Shown: one piece after another, positions 5,981 to 35,782 of the stretch
Layout of the letters: the number at the start of each line of letters is the position of its first letter
Numbering within the stretch: position 1 is the stretch's first letter
Virus record (IMG/VR): IMGVR_UViG_3300029305_004950
Location: 255,627-319,626 of that record
Reading direction: 5' to 3' (one strand)
DNA length: 64,000 nt
Source of the DNA: a virus
Lineage: Duplodnaviria; Heunggongvirae; Uroviricota; Caudoviricetes
Notes under the pieces: generated by a model
The model's input: only the letters and a program-made list of their open reading frames with translations
Database searches by the model: none
Told to the model about the DNA's origin: nothing
Program-made: the position numbers and the translations under genes

Positions 5981-6193
5981 CATAGTTGTTAATACAAGTC
6001 TATTAAGCTTGCACCTTTTGAATTATGCTCTAGATTTTAAACTAGAGATCAGACTATATCTTCTATGTTTTCTATATCCAATGTATTTACATCGTACTAT
6101 ATAGTCGTTGAACCTTATTTAAAAGGCTGCTGATTGTACGTTAAGCATTTTCCAGCAATTAAGAAAATTTAGAGACACCTACCCTAAACTTTA
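5981..6193 (-). ncRNA. Minimal group I intron (213 nt, no ORF) in portal gene
   Basis: Minus-strand P AATTGCTGGAAA, Q AATCAGCAG, R GTTCAACGACTA, S AAGATATAGTC; P1 AGACACU/GGUGUCU with U-G; terminal G at 5981. Confidence 0.9.
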
Positions 6194-6241
6194 AGTGTCT
6201 ATTTCAACAGGTTTTTGTCCTTCAACTACAGGAATGTAATA
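6194..6241 (-). CDS. Portal protein, 48-nt exon 2 (YYIPVVEGQKPVEIDT)
   Basis: Joining gives FQD-YYIPVVEGQKPVEIDT-IPG, matching the T4 gp20 motif DYWL...EVDTLPG in frame. Confidence 0.88.
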
Positions 6242-7342
6242 CTTTGCTTATTATTTCAGAGTTTGTTAAACTCTAAACTCATATTTTCATATGAGAATAG
6301 ACTATATCTTCAACTATCTTTATAGTTGTTTCATACAGAGTATACAACTTATATACTACATAGTCTTTGAACCTTTTATAAGGCTGCTGATTGATCTGTC
6401 AAGTATTTCTTCTAGATTTTTATAATCTTTTCTATCAAATCTTAGAAGAGTTATTCCATTATTTTTACAATATTCGTCTTTTATCTGATCTCTAATTTTG
6501 GTGATTTTCAAACTTTCAGGATCTTTATTCCATCCTTTTTTATGTTGCTCACCATCAAATTCAATTGCAATATTATAATCTGGTAAATAAAAATCTAATC
6601 TTAATTTTTCGATATAAACCAAATCGTCAAACTTCTTTTCTGAAACAAAATTAAAATTTTTTGATTCTAAGAATGATTGAATCTTTTCTTCAGCTCTAGA
6701 ACCATGTCTACATCCACATCCATATCCTGCTTTAAAATTGTAATACATTGTTTCATAAAGATGTTTACAATAAGGACATAATAAACGTAGTTTATATCCT
6801 TTTTCAGACATTTGAATTATTGATTTATTTATATCATCATCAAAAAAATCATAATTACTATTATTAACAAATTCTATTATTTCTTTTCTTTTATTAATTT
6901 CTTTACTTTTATTTACACGTTTTAATTTACAATCAAATTCTGGACATCTTGATCCTTTTTTGAATTTATCAAATCTTACTATATAATCACCATGTCCACA
7001 TTTATCATTAGTTTTTATAAAAAGACGATTATGTTTTGATTTAGAATCTTCTTCTAATTTATAAAGACATTCAAAATATCTATCGGACTCATTTATTTCT
7101 AATAAATGATCTTTAATAGCTTTAATGTCTTTTATAATTCGATTTTCAGAACAAACTATATCGGAATCAAATTTTACTATAATTCCATCAATAATTTTAT
7201 TTATCATAAAACTGCCCCCTAGAAACTATTTTTAATAAATTGTTGTTTCTAGTACCCAGTTTTAAATATACTTGTACAGATTTTTCCAGCAATTCTTGAA
7301 ATAATTCTCTATACTATCACTAATATAGACGACTATTATTTA
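6242..7342 (-). mobile_element. Group I intron (1101 nt) with endonuclease ORF, in portal gene
   Basis: P ~7282-7294, Q ~6383-6392, R ~6361-6372, S ~6300-6311; exon 1 ends in U (GAU) and the intron ends in G at 6242. Confidence 0.9.
6356..7207 (-). CDS. Intron-encoded putative homing endonuclease (Zn-binding repeats plus Vsr/DUF559-like PD-(D/E)xK domain)
   Basis: CGH...RCP and CPYCKH...GYGCGC modules; SRAEEKI...LRLDFYLPDYNIAIEFDGEQH...D.IKDEYC..NGITLLR. Confidence 0.85.
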   Translation of the reverse strand: MINKIIDGIIVKFDSDIVCSENRIIKDIKAIKDHLLEINESDRYFECLYKLEEDSKSKHNRLFIKTNDKCGHGDYIVRFDKFKKGSRCPEFDCKLKRVNKSKEINKRKEIIEFVNNSNYDFFDDDINKSIIQMSEKGYKLRLLCPYCKHLYETMYYNFKAGYGCGCRHGSRAEEKIQSFLESKNFNFVSEKKFDDLVYIEKLRLDFYLPDYNIAIEFDGEQHKKGWNKDPESLKITKIRDQIKDEYCKNNGITLLRFDRKDYKNLEEILDRSISSLIKGSKTM

Positions 7343-22047: not shown

Positions 22048-22079
22048 CGTAATTTGAAAAATTATAGGTATATATTATA
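22048..22079 (+). promoter_or_regulatory. Early-type promoter motif CGTAATTTGAAA...TATATATTATA
   Basis: Near-identical copy at 24216-24247 and core copy at 26690-26700; TATATT-type cores are the early promoters of phiKZ/AR9-like phages. Confidence 0.65.
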
Positions 22080-22108
22080 CCTATAGAAAAATAAAAGGAG
22101 AAGACTAT

Positions 22109-22738
22109 ATGAACTTTATTCACTTATATACTACTGAACGTCCATATTCAGCAATATCTTTCGACTGTGATACTTATACCTTTATTGTTCATCATTATAA
22201 CCGACGTAAACCATATGGAGGATTTTATTTTAGTTCTTTTGAAAGTCGTATTAGCTTTGAAGGATTTATTAAAGAATTTTTACCTGAGTTTATTGAAAGA
22301 ACAAATCTTAATCATTTAAAAAATTTGATAAAAGAAAATATCAAAGATGGTATGAATATAGATGAATTGAAAAAAATTATTTATAAAATTTCTTTACAAG
22401 ATCCAATATTTTTCATGCATAAAACTAAACTTAATGAAATTGTATCATATCCTATGGTTTATATTGAAAATACAATAGAAAAAATAGAGGATTTTGATTT
22501 CATAAAGGTAAAATTTTTCATGAAAAAGAATAATGATGAAAAACCTGATTTCAATAAGTTTAGAGAAAATATCATCAAAAATAAAAAATTCTTAACTAAA
22601 TGTGCTTTATTAGCTACTATTAGGGAAGTTAATAAAAAAGGTTATGATCTTTCAATAAACTTCTTTAAACTAGATGATATTACTTTATCTAAAAATGAAA
22701 ATAGTCTAATCTATACATTTAGTTTAGTAAATAGTTAG
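22109..22738 (+). CDS. Hypothetical early protein (free-standing cassette gene 1)
   Basis: AAGGAG RBS after early-type promoter. Confidence 0.7.
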   Translation: MNFIHLYTTERPYSAISFDCDTYTFIVHHYNRRKPYGGFYFSSFESRISFEGFIKEFLPEFIERTNLNHLKNLIKENIKDGMNIDELKKIIYKISLQDPIFFMHKTKLNEIVSYPMVYIENTIEKIEDFDFIKVKFFMKKNNDEKPDFNKFRENIIKNKKFLTKCALLATIREVNKKGYDLSINFFKLDDITLSKNENSLIYTFSLVNS

Positions 22739-22783
22739 AAATATACATCCTCACAGGCTTTTAAGCCAGAAAGGAAACATACA

Positions 22784-23071
22784 ATGGCTAATAAACTCAT
22801 CACTATTGAAGACATAGAAACTGCAAAAAATCTTGAATACCAGTTGATACATAATTTTTACCAATATTCTGCTATCAAATTTGATCATAAATTTGATGAC
22901 GATCAGTATTTCTTTACATATGAAGCTGGTAAATGCTATTTTGAGCATATTCAAGATGGACGTCCTTTTATAGAAAAGAAGGAAATTTCTTATCCTATGT
23001 GGACTAATGAAATTCTTCATAGAGTTGCTTTTTGCTATAATGCTGAACTTATTGAATTTAGCGAAGAGTAA
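22784..23071 (+). CDS. Hypothetical early protein (free-standing cassette gene 2)
   Basis: AAAGGA RBS; followed by the conserved 28-nt hairpin. Confidence 0.7.
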   Translation: MANKLITIEDIETAKNLEYQLIHNFYQYSAIKFDHKFDDDQYFFTYEAGKCYFEHIQDGRPFIEKKEISYPMWTNEILHRVAFCYNAELIEFSEE

Positions 23072-23083
23072 TCTTAATAAAAG

Positions 23084-23120
23084 TGTTAAGGGATCACTAT
23101 AAATGTCCCTTCTTTTTTTA
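23084..23120 (+). terminator. Conserved 28-nt hairpin element, copy 1
   Basis: TGTTAAGGGATCACTATAAATGTCCCTT followed by CTTTTTTT. Confidence 0.75.
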
Positions 23121-23171: not shown

Positions 23172-24079
23172 TTAGGCTTCCCAGATCTCTTTCATTTTAC
23201 GTTTCATCTCAATTATGAGCTTATTCGTATATAGCATGTTATAAGTATCTGTAGTCATACGAGATACAATACTCATAGGTGAATAGATTGCTAGTATATT
23301 TTCATCAGGATATCTTTCAGAGAAAGGTTCTTCTCCTTTAGGTAATACGTCACTAACGATAGTCTTAACTGCAGTACCATAAGTAACCTTGTCGCCAGTC
23401 TTTAATCTATCTCTATGTTTTACATAGAATTCGATTACAATACCTTCAAAATCTATACCTTTAATCTTTTCATCTTTAATCTGTTCAGTTCTGGGGAAGA
23501 AAGTAGATTTGTTATCAGTATGTTCTACTATCTTCTTTCTAGTGTTAACTTCTTTAGCATAATCATTTAGTAATTTCTGTATAGAATCAGAACAGATTTC
23601 TTTAGGTACATTATAGTAAACCTTGATATCTATAATCTCACCTGAATATTTTGCCTTCTTACTATCTTTACCCATTTCTTCTACGAAACTAGCAAAATCA
23701 TCGTTATCTAAACTATCTAGAATCTGATTAGCAGCAGCATCTTCAAAAGTATGCTCAAACGTAATCAGAGATTCACTAGCTTTGATATGCTGATGTTTCT
23801 TTGCCATGTAAAGAATGTTAGTATTAGGCGTTAGATTTACAGTAGATACCATAGTAATGTAACTAGACATACCTTCAGAAATCTCATCAGTAATAACAGA
23901 GGAGTCTTCTAGAGTATAATCGCCCTGTGCAATAGCTACTTTTGCTAGATAGCCTTGAGTGTAAGTAATACTATCAGGTTTATTACCTAAGAAGAAATTA
24001 CTGTTTTTAGCTAAGATATCATCTTTTTTGAATTTTTGACCTTCTTTGAAAAGTAGATCTTTCTTATTGGAAATGTAAA
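23172..24079 (-). CDS. RNA polymerase beta subunit, exon 3
   Basis: Open frame upstream of the ORF-track start gives FYISNKKDLLFKEGQKF...ILA...GDYTLEDSSV (GYNFEDS motif) and later GDKVTYGTAVKT (GDK motif). Confidence 0.88.
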
Positions 24080-24280
24080 CATTTTGTATTTGTATAGAGT
24101 CATTACTTCTATAACTACTAAGTTATTACAACTTAGATTAGACTATATCTTATTGTACTTTCCTATTATACAATCATTTGACTGCAATATAGTCGTTGAA
24201 CTTATCTTAAAAATACGTAATTTGAAATTTTATGAATATATATTATAAATGTGTAATAAAGCTAAAAGGGAGAACTATTT

Positions 24281-24727
24281 ATGACAAGTATATTTTATAA
24301 ATTCTACTATTTTGAAAGAGCAATTTATAAACTCGACAAAGAACGTATCATTTTCTTTGTAATAGATAAATCGATATATCCTAACGTTGTAGAATCATTC
24401 TCTGTAACAAAAATTGATAAAATAAGTTTAGGAGCATACGAAGATAGTATTAAACTTAATCTAGCAGGAGCTATTAGACTACTTAGAAACTTTATCAACT
24501 ATAATCTCTGTAAAGATAAACCTCTTAATGATACTACTCTACGTAGAATTAAGTATGCAAAAAAGTTGAAAGATAAACTAATCAAAGAAAGTATCTATAG
24601 TAATCTTAAAAACGAAATCTTTACAGAATTTTACTATCCAGTAATCTATGATGATGTAATCAGTACATCATCTTTAAACAGAATAGTAGATGCTTATAAT
24701 GATTACATTCAAAGTGAGATTTTTTAA
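24281..24727 (+). CDS. Intron cargo gene 1, hypothetical
   Basis: GGGAG RBS after the promoter at 24216-24247; no nuclease motif seen. Confidence 0.75.
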   Translation: MTSIFYKFYYFERAIYKLDKERIIFFVIDKSIYPNVVESFSVTKIDKISLGAYEDSIKLNLAGAIRLLRNFINYNLCKDKPLNDTTLRRIKYAKKLKDKLIKESIYSNLKNEIFTEFYYPVIYDDVISTSSLNRIVDAYNDYIQSEIF

Positions 24728-24748
24728 TTACAAAGAGGAGACTAGATA

Positions 24749-25105
24749 ATGAACAACACTAAAAATGGTCATATCTTCATGAATCTTATTGGTAATCCGA
24801 CTAAACAAGGTTTCAGTTGCTTAAGCACTGGATATGGTTATCGTGCTTATGTATCCACTACAGACAGATTCATCAATGACCTTTTCAAAGAAATCTGTAT
24901 GTGGGGCGGTGCTACCGATACCTACGAAACTAGAGATGGACGTTTCTACAATCATTATGAACTGGATTGTAGAGATAAGGCTTTCTTTAAATCTGATACT
25001 TTCAAAAGAATCTGTCAGAGACATCACATTGATCTGGAAATCTATGAAGATGGAAATAATAGCCAAGTTTTTAGAGATTTCTTTGATCAGATGAAGCGTA
25101 GATAA
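24749..25105 (+). CDS. Intron cargo gene 2, hypothetical
   Basis: GAGGAG RBS; phage-like codon usage. Confidence 0.8.
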   Translation: MNNTKNGHIFMNLIGNPTKQGFSCLSTGYGYRAYVSTTDRFINDLFKEICMWGGATDTYETRDGRFYNHYELDCRDKAFFKSDTFKRICQRHHIDLEIYEDGNNSQVFRDFFDQMKRR

Positions 25106-25119
25106 CAAATCTAGCAGAG

Positions 25120-25147
25120 TGTTAAGAGATCACTATAAATGTCTCTT
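25120..25147 (+). terminator. Conserved 28-nt hairpin element, copy 2 (compensatory A-U pair)
   Basis: TGTTAAGAGATCACTATAAATGTCTCTT. Confidence 0.7.
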
Positions 25148-25180
25148 TTAGTTTTTATAATAAAGGAGAATTTACATATT

Positions 25181-25720
25181 ATGTCTACTAATAAAACTTT
25201 TAATATCGAACTCACTCCCCAAGAAGTCTATCTTCTTTATGAAGCCATGTGTGCCAGTATCTATTCTAACCAAGACATGATTAAGTTAGCAAATGGCACG
25301 TATGATCCTAATCCCGATCAAAAGACTATAAAATGTTTCGAAGATAATGCAAAACTATTTGTAAGATTTTCTGAAATTCTTTGCCCAGATGAAGATCCTA
25401 TTGAAGACTACATCGATACATTTGGTTTTATGGATTTTGAAAAAGAATTTCCTATGTTCAAAGACGCATTAACCGAAAAACTTTATGATGTAACTCTGAA
25501 ATATCAAGATGCGTGTACTGGAAAAGAATCTATTTTTCATCGTACCGTATCTAGCTGTACAGAATTTGATGCAAAACAAGAAGCCATTGAATTACATACT
25601 GCTAAGTTTGGAAGTCTTAGAGAAATTAGGTTTGAATCCGCTATTATTTATAAAGATTTATTTCATTATAACGTAAAAGGATGTTATGAAGCCATTTCTG
25701 CTGTACCACAAGATACATAA
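25181..25720 (+). CDS. Intron cargo gene 3, hypothetical
   Basis: AAGGAG RBS before ATG 25181. Confidence 0.78.
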   Translation: MSTNKTFNIELTPQEVYLLYEAMCASIYSNQDMIKLANGTYDPNPDQKTIKCFEDNAKLFVRFSEILCPDEDPIEDYIDTFGFMDFEKEFPMFKDALTEKLYDVTLKYQDACTGKESIFHRTVSSCTEFDAKQEAIELHTAKFGSLREIRFESAIIYKDLFHYNVKGCYEAISAVPQDT

Positions 25721-25741
25721 AAAGAAAAGGAGATTTTCACT

Positions 25742-25948
25742 ATGATGAATACAACTATTAGAGATACTACTGAGAATATAAGATTTTTTGATCTAATTGA
25801 AACTGCAATTGATAAATTAGAGCAAGCAGTAAGTAATATCTCATATCCTGCATTTCCTCATATAAACAAAGATGTCGCTGAAAAAATTGGAAAAACTATT
25901 GCTATTCTCTATGATGTTTTAAATTCTGATATCTATAAACCTATTTAA
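25742..25948 (+). CDS. Intron cargo gene 4, hypothetical
   Basis: AAGAAAAGGAGATTTT RBS. Confidence 0.72.
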   Translation: MMNTTIRDTTENIRFFDLIETAIDKLEQAVSNISYPAFPHINKDVAEKIGKTIAILYDVLNSDIYKPI

Positions 25949-25981
25949 TCCAAAAATAAATAAGAAAAGGAGATTTTAATC

Positions 25982-26119
25982 ATGAAAAACAACACCAAGA
26001 AAGTCATTAAGGAAATCGTTTATATTACTTCTCTCTTTGCAACTGCATATGCTGCTGGATTGGCTGTAAGTCAGTTCTTTCAGAAAGTAATTCACCCCTT
26101 TATGTTTAAGGATGAATAA
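25982..26119 (+). CDS. Intron cargo gene 5, 45-aa single-pass membrane peptide (not in ORF track)
   Basis: MKNNTKKVIKEIVYITSLFATAYAAGLAVSQFFQKVIHPFMFKDE; same RBS string as gene 4; followed by a terminator. Confidence 0.75.
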   Translation: MKNNTKKVIKEIVYITSLFATAYAAGLAVSQFFQKVIHPFMFKDE

Positions 26120-26135
26120 TCCTTTTACTACATTC

Positions 26136-26170
26136 AAAGAGAGAGTCTTTTTAGGCTCTCTTTTTTTTTA
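26136..26170 (+). terminator. Intrinsic terminator closing the intron cassette
   Basis: AGAGAGTCT/AGGCTCTCT stem plus T run. Confidence 0.75.
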
Positions 26171-26259
26171 ATACATTTTTAAGATAAGCTGCTGATTATA
26201 CAATTTTTTGTATGTTCCAGCAATTAAGGAAATTTATAAAGGTGATCAATACAAATTTC

Positions 26260-26512
26260 AACCACCATTGGAGTTTTTACTAATACGTTCTGATATATCG
26301 ATTACATCAGAAGTACCATCTTTATAACGAATTATTGCTAATTCATTCTTTTCATCTACTTTTTCTACTACACCATCTTGCTCTGCTACTGATACAAAGT
26401 CAGATGATAGTGTATAAGGTAGTGTACGTTCAATACCAGAACCATATAAGGCTCTAGATTGTTTTTCAGTGGGAACTATATGTTTCGCTTGCTGCGTTTG
26501 CATTCCGATTCT
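26260..26512 (-). CDS. RNA polymerase beta subunit, exon 2
   Basis: Joining gives HADPP-RIGMQTQQAKHIVP, equivalent to beta HDDANRALMGANMQRQAVP, followed by GSGIE. Confidence 0.9.
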
Positions 26513-26745
26513 CAATATCTTCCTTGTAGAACTTAAAACTACAAGCGTTGTCTTAACAACTGCTCTATTATAAAATAGAGAGGAGACTATATCAAGATTC
26601 TATTATGAATCTTCTCTTATTTCCATTCTAGAGTTAGAATGTACTAATTAGTCGTTGAACTATAAAAATGTAAAGTGTAAAATTTTAATTATATATTATA
26701 TTTATAGTATATTTTAATTATAATTTAGAAAGGTTGTAAAGTTTT

Positions 26746-27939
26746 ATGAACAAAGGACGAAAATTTAATTTATGGACAGAGGAGGAAGTAGCTATCCTTA
26801 AGGAAAAATATCCTACACAAGGATCTAATATTCCTGAATTACTTAAGACACATACTAATTGTGCTATTAAAGCTGAAGCTCATAAACTAAATTTAGTTAA
26901 TTTACCTAAAGGTAGTTCTTGGACTGAGGAGGAAGTAGCTATCCTTAAGGAAAAATATCCCACACAAGGATCTAATATTCCTGAATTACTTAAGACTCGT
27001 ACTAAAATGGCTATTAATAGTGCTGCATTTGAATTCGGTTTAACTAGTGAAAAAAATCCTTGGACAGAGGAGGAAGTAGCTATCCTTAAGGAAAAATATC
27101 CTACACAAGGATCTAATATTCCTGAATTACTTAAGAAACGAACTGCTGATAAAATTCGTAGTAAAGCAAGTATACTAAAAATACGGAAAATCGAACCAGT
27201 TAAAATTAATCCAAAACTTAATCCTTGGACAGAGGAGGAAGTAGCTATCCTTAAGGAAAAATATCCTACACAAGGTCCTGATATTCCTGAATTACTTAAG
27301 AAACGAACTAAAACATCTATTCGACATAAAGCAGTTAGATTAAATTTAAGTGAAGAAAAAGGTAATCCTTGGACAGAGGAGGAAGTAGCTATCCTTAAGG
27401 AAAAATATCCTACACAAGGATCTAATATTCCTGAATTACTTAAGACACATACTAGACAGTCAATTGTAACTAAGTCAAATTATCTGTGTTTAATTAATAG
27501 ATTAATTAATCCTTGGACAGAGGAGGAAGTAGCTATCCTTAAGGAAAAATATCCTACACAAGGATCTAATATTCCTGAATTACTTAAGACACATACTAAT
27601 CAGGCAATTCAGATTAAGGCTACTGAATATAATGTAACTAATAAAGTAAATCCTTGGACAGAGGAGGAAGTAGCTATCCTTAAGGAAAAATATCCTACAC
27701 AAGGATCTAATATTCCTGAATTACTTAAGGCTCGTACTATTAATAGTATTAGGGATAAAGCAATAGTACTGAATTTAGATAAGGTAAAAATTCATTGTTC
27801 GTGGACCGATGAGGAAGTAGCTATCCTTAAGGAAAAATATCCTACACAAGGTCCTGATATTCCTGAATTACTTAAAACACATAAGTCCACTAAGAATATT
27901 AGAGCCAAAGCAAATTCATTAAAAATTTATAAACTTTAA
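26746..27939 (+). CDS. Eight-repeat Myb/SANT-like helix-turn-helix protein (intron cargo)
   Basis: 8x WTEEEVAILKEKYPTQG(SN/PD)IPELLK followed by a variable x(R/H)TxxxIxxKAxxL helix. Confidence 0.8.
   Translation: MNKGRKFNLWTEEEVAILKEKYPTQGSNIPELLKTHTNCAIKAEAHKLNLVNLPKGSSWTEEEVAILKEKYPTQGSNIPELLKTRTKMAINSAAFEFGLTSEKNPWTEEEVAILKEKYPTQGSNIPELLKKRTADKIRSKASILKIRKIEPVKINPKLNPWTEEEVAILKEKYPTQGPDIPELLKKRTKTSIRHKAVRLNLSEEKGNPWTEEEVAILKEKYPTQGSNIPELLKTHTRQSIVTKSNYLCLINRLINPWTEEEVAILKEKYPTQGSNIPELLKTHTNQAIQIKATEYNVTNKVNPWTEEEVAILKEKYPTQGSNIPELLKARTINSIRDKAIVLNLDKVKIHCSWTDEEVAILKEKYPTQGPDIPELLKTHKSTKNIRAKANSLKIYKL
26773..27880 (+). repeat. Coding tandem array: ~75-nt near-identical blocks alternating with unique segments
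   Basis: Unit starts at 26773, 26920, 27061, 27226, 27370, 27514, 27655, 27802 (periods 147,141,165,144,144,141,147, all multiples of 3). Confidence 0.95.
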
Positions 27940-27950
27940 TTTTAATATAC

Positions 27951-27985
27951 TGTTAAGGGATCAGTATAAATGTCCCTTCTTTTTT
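27951..27985 (+). terminator. Conserved 28-nt hairpin element, copy 3
   Basis: TGTTAAGGGATCAGTATAAATGTCCCTT followed by CTTTTTT. Confidence 0.75.
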
Positions 27986-28075
27986 ACATTTTTATAGCTG
28001 CTGATTATACTTTCTTAATATTTTCCAGCAATTAAAGAGATTTCCTCAAACAAAATTGAGGCCCAGATTTATTTT

Positions 28076-31000
28076 AGGTGGATCGGCATGTAAACTAGTA
28101 TAACATGATAATAGTTCACCAGCTGTCAACATGTTAGTTGCAGCTAAATCATTTACATCAGTATTATTATCAATAAAACCTAAGTTATTAGTAATCTTAG
28201 GACTATAGGAAAGCTGACGAGTAACACCAACTTTATTACTATCGGGGGAACTGATACCCAATAATCCAACCATAGATTGATCATAAGATCTCATCTGAGG
28301 GGTAAAGGCATCATCTAGGTTCGTACCTCCAATACCCTTATAAGTTGTTGAACCAAGTCTTTCAATTTCTAATACAGGACTTAAAGTTGAGTATGCTTCA
28401 ACGATAGGTGATTCTACTAGTTTCTTTATTACAGCATCTGGACTGTGTAAAGAAATTTTACGATCTTTATAACCAGATTTATAAGCATCTTTATATTCTC
28501 TTACTGCTTCAGACAGTACATCATATAAAGTTGCATTAACAGTTTCAATACTACGTAAACGATAGTTTTCCATACTATTAGCATTAACATAACTGTTATT
28601 GTCTAATAGAGTATTGCAATACAGTAAAACTCCTAGTAAGTCACTAGGTAGCTTCATATACTCTAGAATTTCCTTAGTCTTAGGATCTAGTATGAAATTC
28701 AAAGTATTTTGGAAACCTTTTGCTAGATTTCGTTTACCATAACGTAAATCGAAATACTCAATATAGATTTCCTTAGAATTCATTTGAGAGAATTCTACTT
28801 CTCTTAAGAATGGAATATCGTTTATACCATTCATAAAGAGACTATTTCTTAGAGGTGTAGACTTATAGTTCAGATAACCATCTTTGAATCTTATAGATGA
28901 CCATAGAGATTGTTCACTTTCATCTACTTGCTTCTTTTTTTCTGAAAGTTCATACTCTATACCATATCTTATCATAACGTTCTCTAAACCAAAATAGAAA
29001 CCTGTTAAAATAGCCAAAGGTATCATAGTACCAGCTACTTTAGTTCTAACATACATGAACTTAGTAGAAGTTTTTTGAGTTAGAAGTTTCTTATAAAGGT
29101 CATCATATCCATGAATCTTAAAGATATCTAAGAATAGGTCAAAGATAGAATTACGAGTAGTTAAAGTTTCAACAATACTAGTTGCTTCATTTAAAACTAC
29201 TTTATAAGAGTTAACTAATCCAGTTTCAGTATTGATAGTAAAAATCATTGAATTTCCTTTAAGAGCACCTAATAAGTACTCATTTTCAGGTATACTATCA
29301 TCTACTGCATAATCTAAGAATTCTGCTACTTCTGCATTAACTGTCTCTCTATTAAAGGAAAAGAAAACATTGTCGTTAAAAGTAAAGTTAAGCATATACT
29401 TAGAAATCTCATCGTATTCCATTATCGTCTGATACTTGGAATTGATAGTAACACAATTACCTAGCTTTACTTTAATACTTCCTTTATGATTAGGAGCATC
29501 TTTTAGAATAAAGTTCTTTAGCTTATCAGAGTTAGAAGATAGCTTCTGATTAAATCTCCAAAAGAACATCTTGTTCTTATCAGTAGAAATAGAAACTTCG
29601 TTTGGCTTATTCTTAGTTATAGGAAGTTTCATTAACTGCTTACCTATAGAAATCTTATGGTCATTTAGATACATGAATGAGTTATCATAAATGATAGGCA
29701 TTTGGATGTTAACTAAATGCTTATTACCCCAACCATCTTCATAGGTAACCTTTATTAGTTCTTTTTTATCTAACTCAGTAGAAATATCTTCTCTAGATAG
29801 GTTAGTAACATAGATAGGACATTCAGGGTCATCATTAAAAGCAGATAGAACCTTTATCAAGTCTCTATCCTTTTGATTTTTAACATAGTTTCTATCTAAA
29901 TCTTTTAGAGTACATTTCTTGACTTCATCATTCAATGTATCTATCTTGATATTTTTAGATTCTATGTTATGAACTGAATGTTCTTTTATAATACTATCTA
30001 TAGAAACAGGTTTTTCATCTTTCTTAAGAGAAACGTCTACTTTTTTCTGTTTTTCCTTAAGTTGTTCTACTTTTTTCTCAGAAACAGTAGTTTGATTATC
30101 ACCTAAGTCTATTAGATACTGTAAGAATTTTTTATCATTGTTCAAGCTATCCTCTAAGTCATTTTCATTATCATAAAGACTAGATTTAACGTTTATAGTT
30201 TTTTCTATCTTATCCATTAAATCTAAATCCTTACTACTATGAGAAAGTTTAGTGTTTAGACTTAATCCATTAACTATCTTTTCTTTAACAAGATTAGCTA
30301 TTTCAACATGAGGATCAGTATTAGAAATCTGCTTTAAAGAACTAGCTTTTATTTCATTACCAAAATCAATGTTTAGTTCTTTATTGATTCTATTAGTTAT
30401 TTCCTGATTAACGTCTCTTTCAATTAATTCAGTTTCTTCATCCTTATCTAGAGTAATACCATTAGAAATCTTATATAGAATGTTACAAAGTTTCTTAAAT
30501 CTTACTAAAGAGAATTTAGGATCATTAAAATCAACCTTAAACATTCTACTATTTCTAGAATCAGAAAAAACAAAATTGAACTTACTAAAGAATTCTTTAT
30601 CTAATGAATCATGTAATAGTAAATAGTATAACATGTTTTCAAAAGTGAATTCTCTACCAGTAGTAATCATCTTTTCTGGTATTACATGAATAAATACTTC
30701 AGGATAAACAAGAGTTTTTTGTAAGATTTCCTTTAAAAAAGGTTGGAAAAACTTAAGTTTACTTTCAAATGTTTTATAAGATTTGAAAGTATCATCAAAT
30801 AGTTTCCAATAAGGATAGGAATCAAAATAGGTATTATAGTTACCGTATAAATCTAGTTTAACTCGTTTAAATGTAACTGAAGGTAGTTTATTAGATATCT
30901 CTTTATATCTAATTTCTTGTAAATTTTCTATACGTTTACTTTTACATGATACTAGTCTATCAATCTTTGGGTAATAGTAACCTTTAATAAATTGCTTTAA

Positions 31001-31165
31001 GAAAAGATTAGAATTAACTTCTCTATAAATATTATCAGAACTAGTACTTGGAAAGAAAATCAATCTTCCTTTTTGTTTATTTGGATTCTCGTCATTACTA
31101 AAAAATAGATTATAATTTTTATATAGATAAAGGTTCTTATCTAATAAGTAGTAATTATATCTCAA
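28076..31165 (-). CDS. RNA polymerase beta subunit, exon 1 (spliced product ~1416 aa; probably virion RNAP type)
   Basis: MYLNDHKISIGKQL, RLRSIE, SPVLEIE, MRSYDQSMVGLL..SSPDSNKVGVTRQL (beta TPEGPNIGL region). Confidence 0.88.
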
Positions 31166-33416: not shown

Positions 33417-33491
33417 AGGGGTATCGCCAAGCGGTTAAGGCAATAGACTTTGACTCTATCATCGATGTTTCGAATACATCTACCCCTGCCA
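33417..33491 (+). tRNA. tRNA-Gln(UUG)
   Basis: Cloverleaf; anticodon arm ATAGA-CTTTGAC-TCTAT; encoded CCA. Confidence 0.92.
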
Positions 33492-33522
33492 ATAGAATTC
33501 TTGATAATTCTAAAATTTTTAT

Positions 33523-33614
33523 GGCAATGTACTCAAGTGGTCGAAGAGATCTGTCTTGAAAACAGAGAGTCGGTTAATAGCCGAGCGGAGATTCGAATTC
33601 TTCCATTGCCGCCA
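33523..33614 (+). tRNA. tRNA-Ser(UGA)
   Basis: TCTGT-CTTGAAA-ACAGA; long variable arm; G73; CCA. Confidence 0.92.
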
Positions 33615-33757
33615 AAAGTCTTGATAGTTTTTATACTATCAAGACTTTAATTTTTATAAAAATCAAGAAGGTAGCCTAGGAGTCATGAACCAAGGAGATA
33701 ATAAGCCTCTATCTTAAGCTTCTTGATTTTTAAATCTTACTGTAGAGGAGTAAAAAT

Positions 33758-34612
33758 ATGATAGATAAACAGAAAAGTTATAATCATTCCAAAGAATCTA
33801 ATAAAAGAAAAGCTGAACAGTTGGGAATGTCTTCTTATGGTAAAGCTAGAAATATTCTTAATAATTCTATTTTATTTAAATTAGTTAAAGATTCAGGAGA
33901 AAATATTTGTTATAGATGCAAACAACCTATAACTGATACTAAAAATTTAACAGTTGATCACAAAGAACCTTATTTATATTCTGAAAATGCTACTGAATTA
34001 TTTTTTGATTTAGATAATGTAGCATTTAGTCATAAAAGTTGTAATTGTAAAAATACTAGAAGTAATGATAAATCATTACGTCCTAATAATGAACTAAATC
34101 TTGATACTAATAAAATAAAAGAAAAATATTTAGGTATGTCTTATGGTAAAGCTAGAAATATTCTTAATAATGATTTACTATTTACATATGTAAAGAAAAC
34201 TGGTAATGATATCTGTTTTCAATGTGGTGAAAAAATTTTAAATAAAGATGAATTATCTGTAGAACATAAAGAACCTTTTATGTATTCTGATGATCCTAAA
34301 AAACTATTCTTTGATTTGAATAATGTAGCATTTAGTCATAAAAGTTGTAACTATAAAGCTAGTAGAAAGAACGAAGGACCTTGTATAAAGAAAATATCTA
34401 GAGATTCTATGATAAGCCAATCAGGTTATAAGGGAGTTCAGTATAGAACAAATAGACCTACTAAGTATTATTCCAAACTTGTTATAAATGGTAAATCGAT
34501 TTATATTGGTTCTAGTAATGATCCTAAAGAATTAGCTGAACTATATGATAAAAAGGCTATTGAATTATTAGGTGAAGAAGCAATTACTAATAAGAAACTA
34601 GGTTTATTATAA
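33758..34612 (+). CDS. Free-standing HNH-HNH-AP2 homing-type endonuclease in the tRNA cluster
   Basis: Two copies of C..C...VDH/VEH...NVAFSHKSCN and a C-terminal SGYKGVQY...YIG...AELYD AP2 domain. Confidence 0.85.
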   Translation: MIDKQKSYNHSKESNKRKAEQLGMSSYGKARNILNNSILFKLVKDSGENICYRCKQPITDTKNLTVDHKEPYLYSENATELFFDLDNVAFSHKSCNCKNTRSNDKSLRPNNELNLDTNKIKEKYLGMSYGKARNILNNDLLFTYVKKTGNDICFQCGEKILNKDELSVEHKEPFMYSDDPKKLFFDLNNVAFSHKSCNYKASRKNEGPCIKKISRDSMISQSGYKGVQYRTNRPTKYYSKLVINGKSIYIGSSNDPKELAELYDKKAIELLGEEAITNKKLGLL

Positions 34613-34775
34613 TTTACAATAAAAGTCTTGATATTTCATGAAAATTCAATTTTTATTATAAAAAAGATATAAATAAAAATTTATTACTACGAAAATTAAA
34701 TCAATTTTTAAGTATATATTTTTATAGTATAATGAAGAATTGGTATATGAACTATCAAGACTTTTCTTTACATAT

Positions 34776-34862
34776 GGGGGTATGGCGGAATAGGTAGACG
34801 CAACAGACTTAAAATCTGTCGATAGTGATATCGTGGGAATTCGAGTTTCCCTACCCCCACCA
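34776..34862 (+). tRNA. tRNA-Leu(UAA)
   Basis: ACAGA-CTTAAAA-TCTGT; variable arm; A73; CCA. Confidence 0.93.
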
Positions 34863-34910
34863 TAAAAGTTTAGTAAGTTTCGATTATATTGGAACTGACT
34901 AAACTAATAT

Positions 34911-34988
34911 CCTCCAGTAGGCTCAGCAGGTTAGAGCTTTCGACTTATAATCGAAGGGTCGGTGGTTCGATCCCACCCTGGAGGACCA
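34911..34988 (+). tRNA. tRNA-Ile(UAU)
   Basis: TTCGA-CTTATAA-TCGAA; acceptor CCTCCAG/CTGGAGG; A73; CCA. Confidence 0.88.
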
Positions 34989-35025
34989 TTACATATAATC
35001 TAGATTTTAATCTAGTATTTATAAA

Positions 35026-35321
35026 GCGAGGTTCGATTTACTTTAAAGTAATGGTACGGTAAGATTCCGTAGGAGTATTATACTCTAACGCTTATACTGA
35101 AATATAGTTTTTGCATCTGTATGAGTAGCTACATATAGATACATACTTCAACTATAGAGTAAGCGTCATAGGGTACTACGAAAGTGTACAAGTTAGGTAA
35201 ATGCTGACCTAGCGAAGGGGTAATTAATAAAAAAGTGCATCCTTGTAAGTTGGAGAATATAGAACTATAATATATGGCTGAAACGGACTATTATATTCTA
35301 TAGGTAAACTTTCACCCCTTT
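35026..35321 (+). ncRNA. Unassigned structured RNA(s) in the tRNA cluster
   Basis: Consecutive hairpins including a GAAA tetraloop and long closing stems; no ORF; GC higher than background. Confidence 0.55.
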
Positions 35322-35325
35322 AAAT

Positions 35326-35399
35326 GCAGGTGTAATTTAATGGTAAAATGACAGCCTTCCAAGCTGTATTTGGGGTTTCGATTACCCTCACCTGCTCCA
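35326..35399 (+). tRNA. tRNA-Gly(UCC)
   Basis: ACAGC-CTTCCAA-GCTGT; U73; CCA. Confidence 0.92.
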
Positions 35400-35402
35400 T
35401 AT

Positions 35403-35486
35403 GTTGTTATAGAGTTATAAAGCTGGATATGAGAGTTTTGATGGTATCTCAGTCATATAGCGTGTAAACCATTCTCTATAACAACC
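35403..35486 (+). ncRNA. Unassigned rod-like RNA between tRNA-Gly and tRNA-Ser
   Basis: GTTGTTATAGAG/CTCTATAACAAC closing stem with inner stems. Confidence 0.4.
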
Positions 35487-35494
35487 TTATATAA

Positions 35495-35585
35495 GGAGAG
35501 TTACCCAAGTGGTTGAAGGGGGCGGTCTACTAAACCGCTAGGACGTGAAAGCGTCGCAAGGTTTCGAATACCTTACTCTCCGCCA
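35495..35585 (+). tRNA. tRNA-Ser(ACU)
   Basis: GCGGT-CTACTAA-ACCGC; long variable arm; GGAGAGT acceptor; G73; CCA. Confidence 0.88.
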
Positions 35586-35627
35586 GAATTATTATAACTA
35601 GCATAAACTAGTTATTTTAATATAAAT

Positions 35628-35703
35628 GCTTCATTAGCTCAGTAGGTAGAGCATCTGACTGTTAATCAGAGGGTCGCAGGATCGAGGCCTGCATGAAGCG
35701 CCA
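35628..35703 (+). tRNA. tRNA-Asn(GUU)
   Basis: TCTGA-CTGTTAA-TCAGA; T-loop ATCGAGG; G73; CCA. Confidence 0.9.
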
Positions 35704-35706
35704 TAT

Positions 35707-35782
35707 GATCTGCTAGCTCAGTAGGTAGAGCACTGCCCTTTTAAGGCAGGTGTCCAGAGTTCGAGCCTCTGGCAGATCACCA
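35707..35782 (+). tRNA. tRNA-Lys(UUU)
   Basis: CTGCC-CTTTTAA-GGCAG; CCA. Confidence 0.92.

Follow-up and report, generated by a model that had tools for sequence, protein, structure and literature searches.

Antisense gene cassettes in the L6a loop of group I introns of an AR9-like jumbo phage

Why should two neighbouring introns in one phage RNA polymerase (RNAP) gene each hold a promoter, genes, and a terminator on the opposite strand, at the same place in the ribozyme fold? From two unrelated cargos at one site and in one orientation, the initial annotation had inferred a reproducible acquisition mechanism or selection. Here we describe intron A, the upstream of the two, compare it with introns of this genome and its relatives, and weigh explanations for its cargo.

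Intron A and its antisense cassette

The stretch of DNA analysed (the window) is the final 64 kb of a phage record 319,626 nt long, with a GC content of 28.6%. Among AR9-like phages, the interrupted gene has matches to RNAP beta subunits at 33–39% identity, and its AR9 counterpart is g189, annotated as a virion RNAP subunit (record KU878088); the accessible part of the AR9 paper classes g189 as a late gene (PMC5312081). The features of the gene, of intron A, and of its cassette are as follows.

28076..31165, minus: exon 1 of virion RNAP beta (AR9 g189 homologue), ending ...HADPP at the splice-site U
26260..26512, minus: exon 2, 253 nt, from frame joining
23172..24079, minus: exon 3, from frame joining
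26513..28075, minus: intron A, group I (IA2-like, with P7.1), 1563 nt, from its terminal G and the empty site in relatives
28062..28067, minus: predicted internal guide, read from the sequence
27997..28061, minus: 5' core (P2, P3, P, P5, Q), from sequence and pairing
26513..26660, minus: 3' core (R, P7.1, P3, P8, S, P9, P9.1, P9.2), from pairing
27983..27997, minus: 5' arm of P6/P6a, on the plus strand directly 3' of the terminator U-run
26660..26674, minus: 3' arm of P6/P6a, on the plus strand containing the promoter's upstream YGTA element
26669..26700, plus: predicted early (virion-RNAP) promoter, YGTA-N17-TATATATTATA, from the motif and the AR9 consensus
26727..26733, plus: purine-rich ribosome-binding site, from sequence
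26746..27939, plus: 397-aa protein of eight Myb-like three-helix repeats, from Pfam, predicted structure, and repeat analysis
27955..27985, plus: predicted intrinsic terminator (hairpin and U-run), of a sequence family shared with 23084 and 25120

Excising introns A and B joins exons 31165-28076, 26512-26260, and 24079-23172 into 4251 nt encoding an unbroken 1416-aa homologue of AR9 virion RNAP beta with a single terminal stop. Within exon 1 the predicted guide of intron A pairs with the last three bases (U.G at the splice site), and within exon 2 with the first three; the exon-side P1 is 3 bp only, and the exon-terminal U and intron-terminal G are both present. On the minus strand, the 5' strand of P3 lies at 28040-28035, P at 28033-28022, Q at 28006-27997, R at 26660-26649, and S at 26594-26585, with the 3' strand of P3 between R and S. 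The intron thus combines P/Q/R/S, helices P3–P9 with P7.1, frame restoration, and empty alleles. A comparison limited to intron A and its sister, intron C, scored 59 cells across 30 core pairs; every cell is paired and there are 3 double changes, a score reached by 53 of 500 shuffles.

Five relatives have the site empty and read straight through as HADPP|R (L001, L003, AR9, Goe21, and LPJP1); by genome, the uninserted relatives are G001/G002 (exon 2 93% identical), G003, AR9, Goe21, and LPJP1. The cultured phage BpSp has a cargo-free intron at exactly the same base. The Rfam model RF00028 gives no match at intron A, and its sub-threshold matches fall solely at two compact portal introns; the 1.3-kb insert probably defeats the model. 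Judged from sequence, intron A is a genuine group I intron, as the initial annotation had held, and its splicing is predicted.

The assembly was checked with contigs from 8 of 10 listed DNA runs, which are possibly from one campaign and possibly include the source. Contigs bridge both cargo borders with zero differences (X9, 26279-26802; X8, 27853-28295). None spans the interior of the Myb repeats, whose number rests on the assembled record, and the exon 1–exon 2 joint occurs in none. One contig (X5, window 26260-26802) is a strain variant in which an exon 2 with 32 differences adjoins a near-identical intron A. Elsewhere in the window, a tRNA cluster (33417-35779; seven Rfam tRNA matches and one more tRNA-like match) has in its region a free-standing HNH gene (33758-34612) and a sub-threshold RAGATH-36 RNA match (35052-35192).

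Q and R of intron A are separated by a 1336-nt L6, in keeping with the ~1.3 kb first estimated. The perfect 15-bp stem reported there is real; it closes the antisense unit, and the longest stem obtained in 20,000 shuffles of its arms was 13 bp. When the full 1.6-kb intron is folded, 14 of the 15 P6a pairs have probabilities of 0.94–1.0. The antisense unit itself, at 26669-27985(+), contains what had been described: a single non-nuclease ORF between a promoter and a terminator, both predicted. In the sense direction its hairpin has no U-run.

The promoter box TATATATTATA lies at 26690-26700(+). The accessible text on AR9 gives the early promoter consensus as AAATATATATTAT-6N-G (PMC5312081), with which the intron A motif agrees, and early activity is predicted on this basis. 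As in AR9, an AT-rich TATATATTAT box repeats genome-wide upstream of genes. Intergenic scoring found 27 sites in the genome, 15 on the plus and 12 on the minus strand, which rules out a genome-wide strand bias as the reason for cassette orientation. Free-standing promoters also bear the YGTA element 17 nt upstream of the box. The arm letters noted initially as shared by both cargo introns are present but are not fixed element ends: they recur because the YGTA promoter element sits inside a P6a arm, facing its complement, and the arms differ between cassettes.

The 397-aa cargo matches Pfam PF00249 (Myb; E 1e-18) and is built of tandem three-helix repeats with conserved Trp, as expected of Myb-like HTH proteins. 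Residues 1-25 of the repeats are 96% identical between repeats, and the next 16, including helix 3, 30%. In Myb domains, helix 3 is the DNA-reading helix. The predicted model is all-helical (pLDDT 88.5) and has no extra domain; a single-sequence model was poor (pLDDT 46.5). The best PDB matches are to c-Myb, weakly (E 0.005 and E 0.027), and Foldseek with the model returned no match at E 0.001. With eight three-helix repeats only, the protein lacks the nuclease domain of a mobile-intron endonuclease, and a weak HNH PHROG match covers only the N-terminal 4-94 region of that PHROG family. LAGLIDADG or HNH domains occur in 28 of 116 homologues, and intron C, in a prohead protease gene, encodes a 49%-identical paralogue; the family was found in none of five related records and in no viral contigs. 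The cargo is likely a sequence-specific DNA-binding protein and kin of homing endonucleases. Its constant scaffold and variable recognition helices make it a candidate modular DNA-binding system.

Recurrence and turnover of intronic cassettes

The second intron of the gene and a nearby intergenic unit share this layout.

24080..26259, minus: intron B, group I, with a 1986-nt L6 insert, from core elements
24216..26170, plus: antisense cassette of intron B, from promoter, ORFs, and internal and final terminators
22048..23118, plus: free-standing cassette of two ORFs, from promoter and terminator families as in the intronic cassettes

The intron B promoter (24216-24247(+)) precedes five ORFs (24281-26119) with no assigned function. 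A homologue of the second free-standing gene lies inside intron B of the relative G001. One 24-nt terminator motif occurs at the free-standing cassette, inside intron B, at the end of intron A, and twice in G001 intron B.

A search of this genome (G000) that used only R and S located 15 introns, of which five have antisense promoter cassettes, two have sense L6 ORFs, one has a sense promoter-like insert without an ORF, and seven have loops of 10–15 nt; a sixteenth core, of another type, lies outside this count. Judged from exon translations, the five cassette introns interrupt genes for RNAP beta (two), prohead protease (two), and terminase (one). The portal introns, initially considered cargo-free, do have a portal host and L6 loops of 10–12 nt, but one has a sense 283-aa endonuclease ORF. 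The two are closely spaced (window 6029-7340), and the ORF, in the first, lies between P and Q and continues through Q and R.

Pattern scans returned 23 viral and 14 metagenome loci, duplicates included, and we tabulated 27 cassettes in AR9-like phages, some orthologous, three of them in the cultured Bacillus phage BpSp. Cases outside G000 and G001 were mostly picked by a pattern requiring an antisense promoter, so the counts reflect breadth and not the true orientation ratio. A sense-orientation control scan gave 3 loci and 0 cassettes, an unequal test since the pattern misses some Q variants. A loose viral scan (63 loci) yielded mostly chance AT-rich matches and was set aside. The cassette pattern had no matches in AR9, Internexus, Goe21, or LPJP1.

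Stems of at least 9 bp, of differing sequence, close 24 of the 27 cassettes, and a hairpin with a U-run stands beside the arm in 26. Long P6a stems (8–15 bp) also close sense endonuclease inserts, and many cassette terminators appear bidirectional. The interrupted genes are for the most part structural or virion ones (virion RNAP subunits, terminase, prohead protease), with one cassette in a DNA polymerase gene, and in L106 four successive introns of one gene bear cassettes. All seven sense L6 ORFs scanned belong to endonuclease families, and a scan of 29 antisense ORFs in introns at other loci gave no nuclease match.

In BpSp, gp249 and gp247 lie antisense in L6 of RNAP beta introns and gp190 in a prohead protease intron. 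The 306-aa BpSp gp246 (L145:9136-10056), also antisense, is placed between R and S of an intron with two inserts, a position suggesting a second loop able to accept cargo. A family of antisense proteins of ~115–125 aa (L108:3617-3973, L105:3618-3962, L104:2827-3192, L111, and BpSp gp190), with no assigned function, occurs in RNAP beta, DNA polymerase, and prohead protease introns of different phages. Its recurrence fits an intron-linked role better than random cargo, and is left unexplained by the model favoured below.

Four antisense cassettes of 200–370 nt (G000:C1:240049-240282, here G000 D; L012; L016; L110) have a promoter and terminator and no ORF of at least 40 aa; they probably specify small RNAs or very small peptides, and no Rfam family exceeded the cut-off on these inserts. 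Two orthologous RNAP beta-C introns (L078, G000:C1:173822-174018; L081, G001, R at 1078, minus) have a sense promoter-like box, an ORF-less stretch of 200–290 nt, and then a U-rich sense terminator. Their common hairpin, with an identical 9-nt loop and altered stem pairs, is a candidate structured RNA of no Rfam family. The orientation noted at the outset is recurrent, but not absolute. In the introns of L010, L033, and L035, a 66-nt L6 hairpin contains a sense sigma-70-like TTGACA/TATAAT pair.

Orthologous introns differ in their cargo. Intron B has five genes here and eleven in G001 (2.0 versus 5.3 kb), only one being common to both; site B has an empty intron in AR9 and a loaded one in BpSp; and a beta-prime intron that is minimal in G000 and G001 bears a cassette in G004. 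Three intronic genes of G001 have non-intronic homologues in G000 (52%, 48%, and 30% identity), one followed by an identical terminator. At the level of sequence, these comparisons show turnover of cargo at orthologous introns, by gain, loss, or replacement.

The initial annotation had called for a phylogeny of four intron cores, which we widened to 66 of 70 rows; four were dropped because P/Q were not located, and de-duplication removed G001 intron B. Two labels were hand-corrected, the alignment includes 8 nt of each P6a arm, and the bootstrap is not settled. On this tree cassette introns are scattered: the cassette label needs 16 changes, at least nine of them forced by starred branches, and shuffled labels average 18.7, with 55 of 500 shuffles as low as 16. 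A single origin of cassette introns is unsupported by the tree. Introns A and C are sisters (support 99/99) and both carry Myb paralogues, and therefore this intron and its cargo probably moved together once. Intron C (G000:C1:239651-238226) looks mosaic, with a P5 region like that of intron B and a 3' half 79% identical to intron A.

How cassettes may be acquired and kept

The account that we consider probable, with some reserve, is that the L6a loop tolerates inserts: early-gene modules enter it by recombination, and those that do not disturb splicing are retained. By extension from AR9, the virion RNAP would fire the cassette promoter early in infection, yielding mRNA for the Myb-repeat protein and halting just before Q, so that the antisense RNA would overlap the loop only and not the core. 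Late in infection, the non-virion RNAP would transcribe the host gene, P6a would close the 1.3-kb loop, and intron A would splice, the two transcriptions being kept apart in time. One P6a arm may double as the promoter's upstream element, and the other, after the terminator U-run, may be kept complementary by selection for splicing. Cargo would come from the phage's pool of early-gene modules, recombining via promoter, terminator, or core sequences in the manner of T4-type PeSLs, and the backward orientation would be favoured in that ribosomes and cassette signals stay off the sense RNA.

Certain observations run against this model. Two beta-C introns hold sense promoter-like and terminator inserts, and many terminators look bidirectional. 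Hence the polymerase transcribing the host gene must pass hairpins of this kind, and terminators are a weaker reason for the backward orientation. One cassette lies in a DNA polymerase gene of uncertain timing, and the comparisons yielded no recombination junction. The best reading nonetheless is that selection maintains the backward orientation and the stem. Of the alternatives first offered, reproducible acquisition or selection, recurrence stands (5 of 15 introns here, 27 tabulated cassettes, a scattered tree), the shared arm sequence is no mark of a dedicated insertion machine, and the evidence favours module shuffling with selection over a special acquisition mechanism. Cassette introns are likely swappable accessory-gene slots inside essential genes.

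Foremost among the other explanations, and in our judgement unlikely, is that the cargo serves the spread of the intron as a selfish unit, with the Myb array binding the intronless allele and either blocking it or guiding a separate nuclease. The nuclease domains in 28 of 116 homologues would fit, as would the contrast between the repeat scaffold (96%) and the third-helix segment (30%), the 49%-identical paralogue in sister intron C, and the free-standing HNH gene 2.6 kb from the RNAP start. Introns A and C themselves, however, have no nuclease domain, the cargo of other cassettes is unrelated or has no ORF, and the Myb family was not found in the five related records or in viral contigs. The single X5 contig points both ways: it has 32 differences in the 253-nt exon against at most four in 290 nt of intron A, as a spreading intron might leave, but intron cores are more constrained than synonymous sites, and the exon differences reach to 6 nt from the junction, so that no co-conversion is visible on that side.

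It is distinctly improbable that the cassette is mainly regulatory, with early antisense transcription curbing premature late-gene expression or splicing and the cargo secondary. Such a role would suit the preponderance of structural and virion hosts, the ORF-less cassettes (G000 D, L012, L016, and L110), and the four successive cassette introns of the L106 gene. Yet terminators are predicted to end the antisense RNA short of the core, and orthologous genes manage with no cassette (0 pattern matches in AR9 and three relatives; beta-prime in G000 and G001). The cargo ORFs are uninterrupted, follow ribosome-binding sites, and show conservation at the protein level.

We regard a transposon- or integron-like element, whose recombinase-recognised terminal inverted repeats form P6a incidentally, as very improbable. 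Inverted repeats do surround nearly all intronic cassettes, with similar arm letters within one clade, but arms vary from cassette to cassette and agree with P6a of sister introns that lack a cassette, no such repeat follows the terminator of the free-standing cassette, and we found no recombinase among the cargo and neither the conserved ends or att sites nor the cognate enzyme of IS, MITE, or integron elements. Equally hard to credit is a long P6a serving as a trans-splicing clamp that reassembles halves of a host transcript stopped in the loop: many terminators look bidirectional and one intron has a sense U9 terminator just before R, but the intron A hairpin has no sense-direction U-run, no sense promoter for a 3' half was found, and sense endonuclease inserts are also closed by long stems.

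Relation to known nested genes and significance

The closest known case is AR9 g190, which sits in L6a of a g189 intron and whose early promoter, according to the accessible part of the paper, was shown to be active inside this intron of a late gene (PMC5312081). The host gene family, the L6a loop, and the early promoter class inside a late gene are all shared, but g190 is a sense HNH endonuclease ending just before R, whereas the intron A unit is antisense, terminated, and non-nuclease. In the T4 td intron, the consulted sections of a review place the I-TevI ORF in the P6/P6a loop (PMC3073962), and from them td is alike in being a phage group I intron with an L6a ORF whose cargo sequence contributes to P6a. 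I-TevI, as described there, is a homing endonuclease encoded in sense, and the 3' end of its gene forms P6a, whereas the intron A arm is a promoter element of the other strand; in place of the one nuclease of td, the cassettes here hold from one to eleven non-nuclease genes, or lack an ORF altogether.

Didymium I-DirII, in the same sections, is an antisense homing endonuclease gene in a group I intron (PMC3073962), alike in having its own promoter, but it belongs to eukaryotic rDNA and, as far as those sections go, is a single homing endonuclease with no exchangeable multi-gene cargo. The PeSL cassettes of RB49 and phi1 are described, in the portion available, as repeated early promoter and terminator sequences with recombination shuffling (PMC2839356). 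As in our cassettes, repeated promoter and terminator sequences flank genes that differ between relatives. PeSLs are, from that portion, intergenic and consist of fused sigma-70-type promoter-terminator units, whereas here the two are separate, phage-type, and flank cargo inside a ribozyme. Recombination is reported there for PeSLs, whereas for the intronic cassettes we infer it; DNA contigs of 8 runs contained no PeSL-type recombination products or mini-circles.

Non-homing genes are nested likewise in other group I introns. These include the hexacoral ND5 intron (ND1/ND3), fungal rnl rps3, and IStrons, which differ in holding fixed housekeeping or transposon genes, mostly in sense, rather than early phage operons of variable content. 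Trans and collaborative homing are also described, in the part of the source consulted (PMC2988022). Our literature search, confined to open-access papers without their supplements (and so not covering the AR9 and BpSp genome papers), found no report of antisense, non-nuclease cassettes within group I introns of phages, and such cassettes do not appear in the accessible portions of PMC11878797, PMC11835236, PMC12880540, PMC10914365, PMC12386605, PMC7824862, PMC5312081, and bioRxiv 10.1101/2020.12.14.422802. Group I introns with nested genes are already known; the novelty is exchangeable antisense early cassettes in L6a.

On a bolder view, which we think rather unlikely, group I introns of AR9-like jumbo phages would be gene vehicles: L6a would serve as an exchangeable and insulated slot for early operons, and trans homing would drive whole accessory operons between phages inside essential genes; the cargo here would be a TALE-like Myb array whose individually diversified recognition helices silence or mark the alleles of rival phages without cutting.

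Phage group I introns are usually viewed as empty or as holding one homing nuclease. Through those described here, essential genes harbour accessory operons that vary in content, reach 5.3 kb and 11 genes, and are predicted to be transcribed from the other strand. This adds a hiding place for phage accessory genes and accounts for fragmented annotations of AR9-like phages. It also raises the question of whether introns spread useful cargo, an idea that the cultured phage BpSp makes testable.
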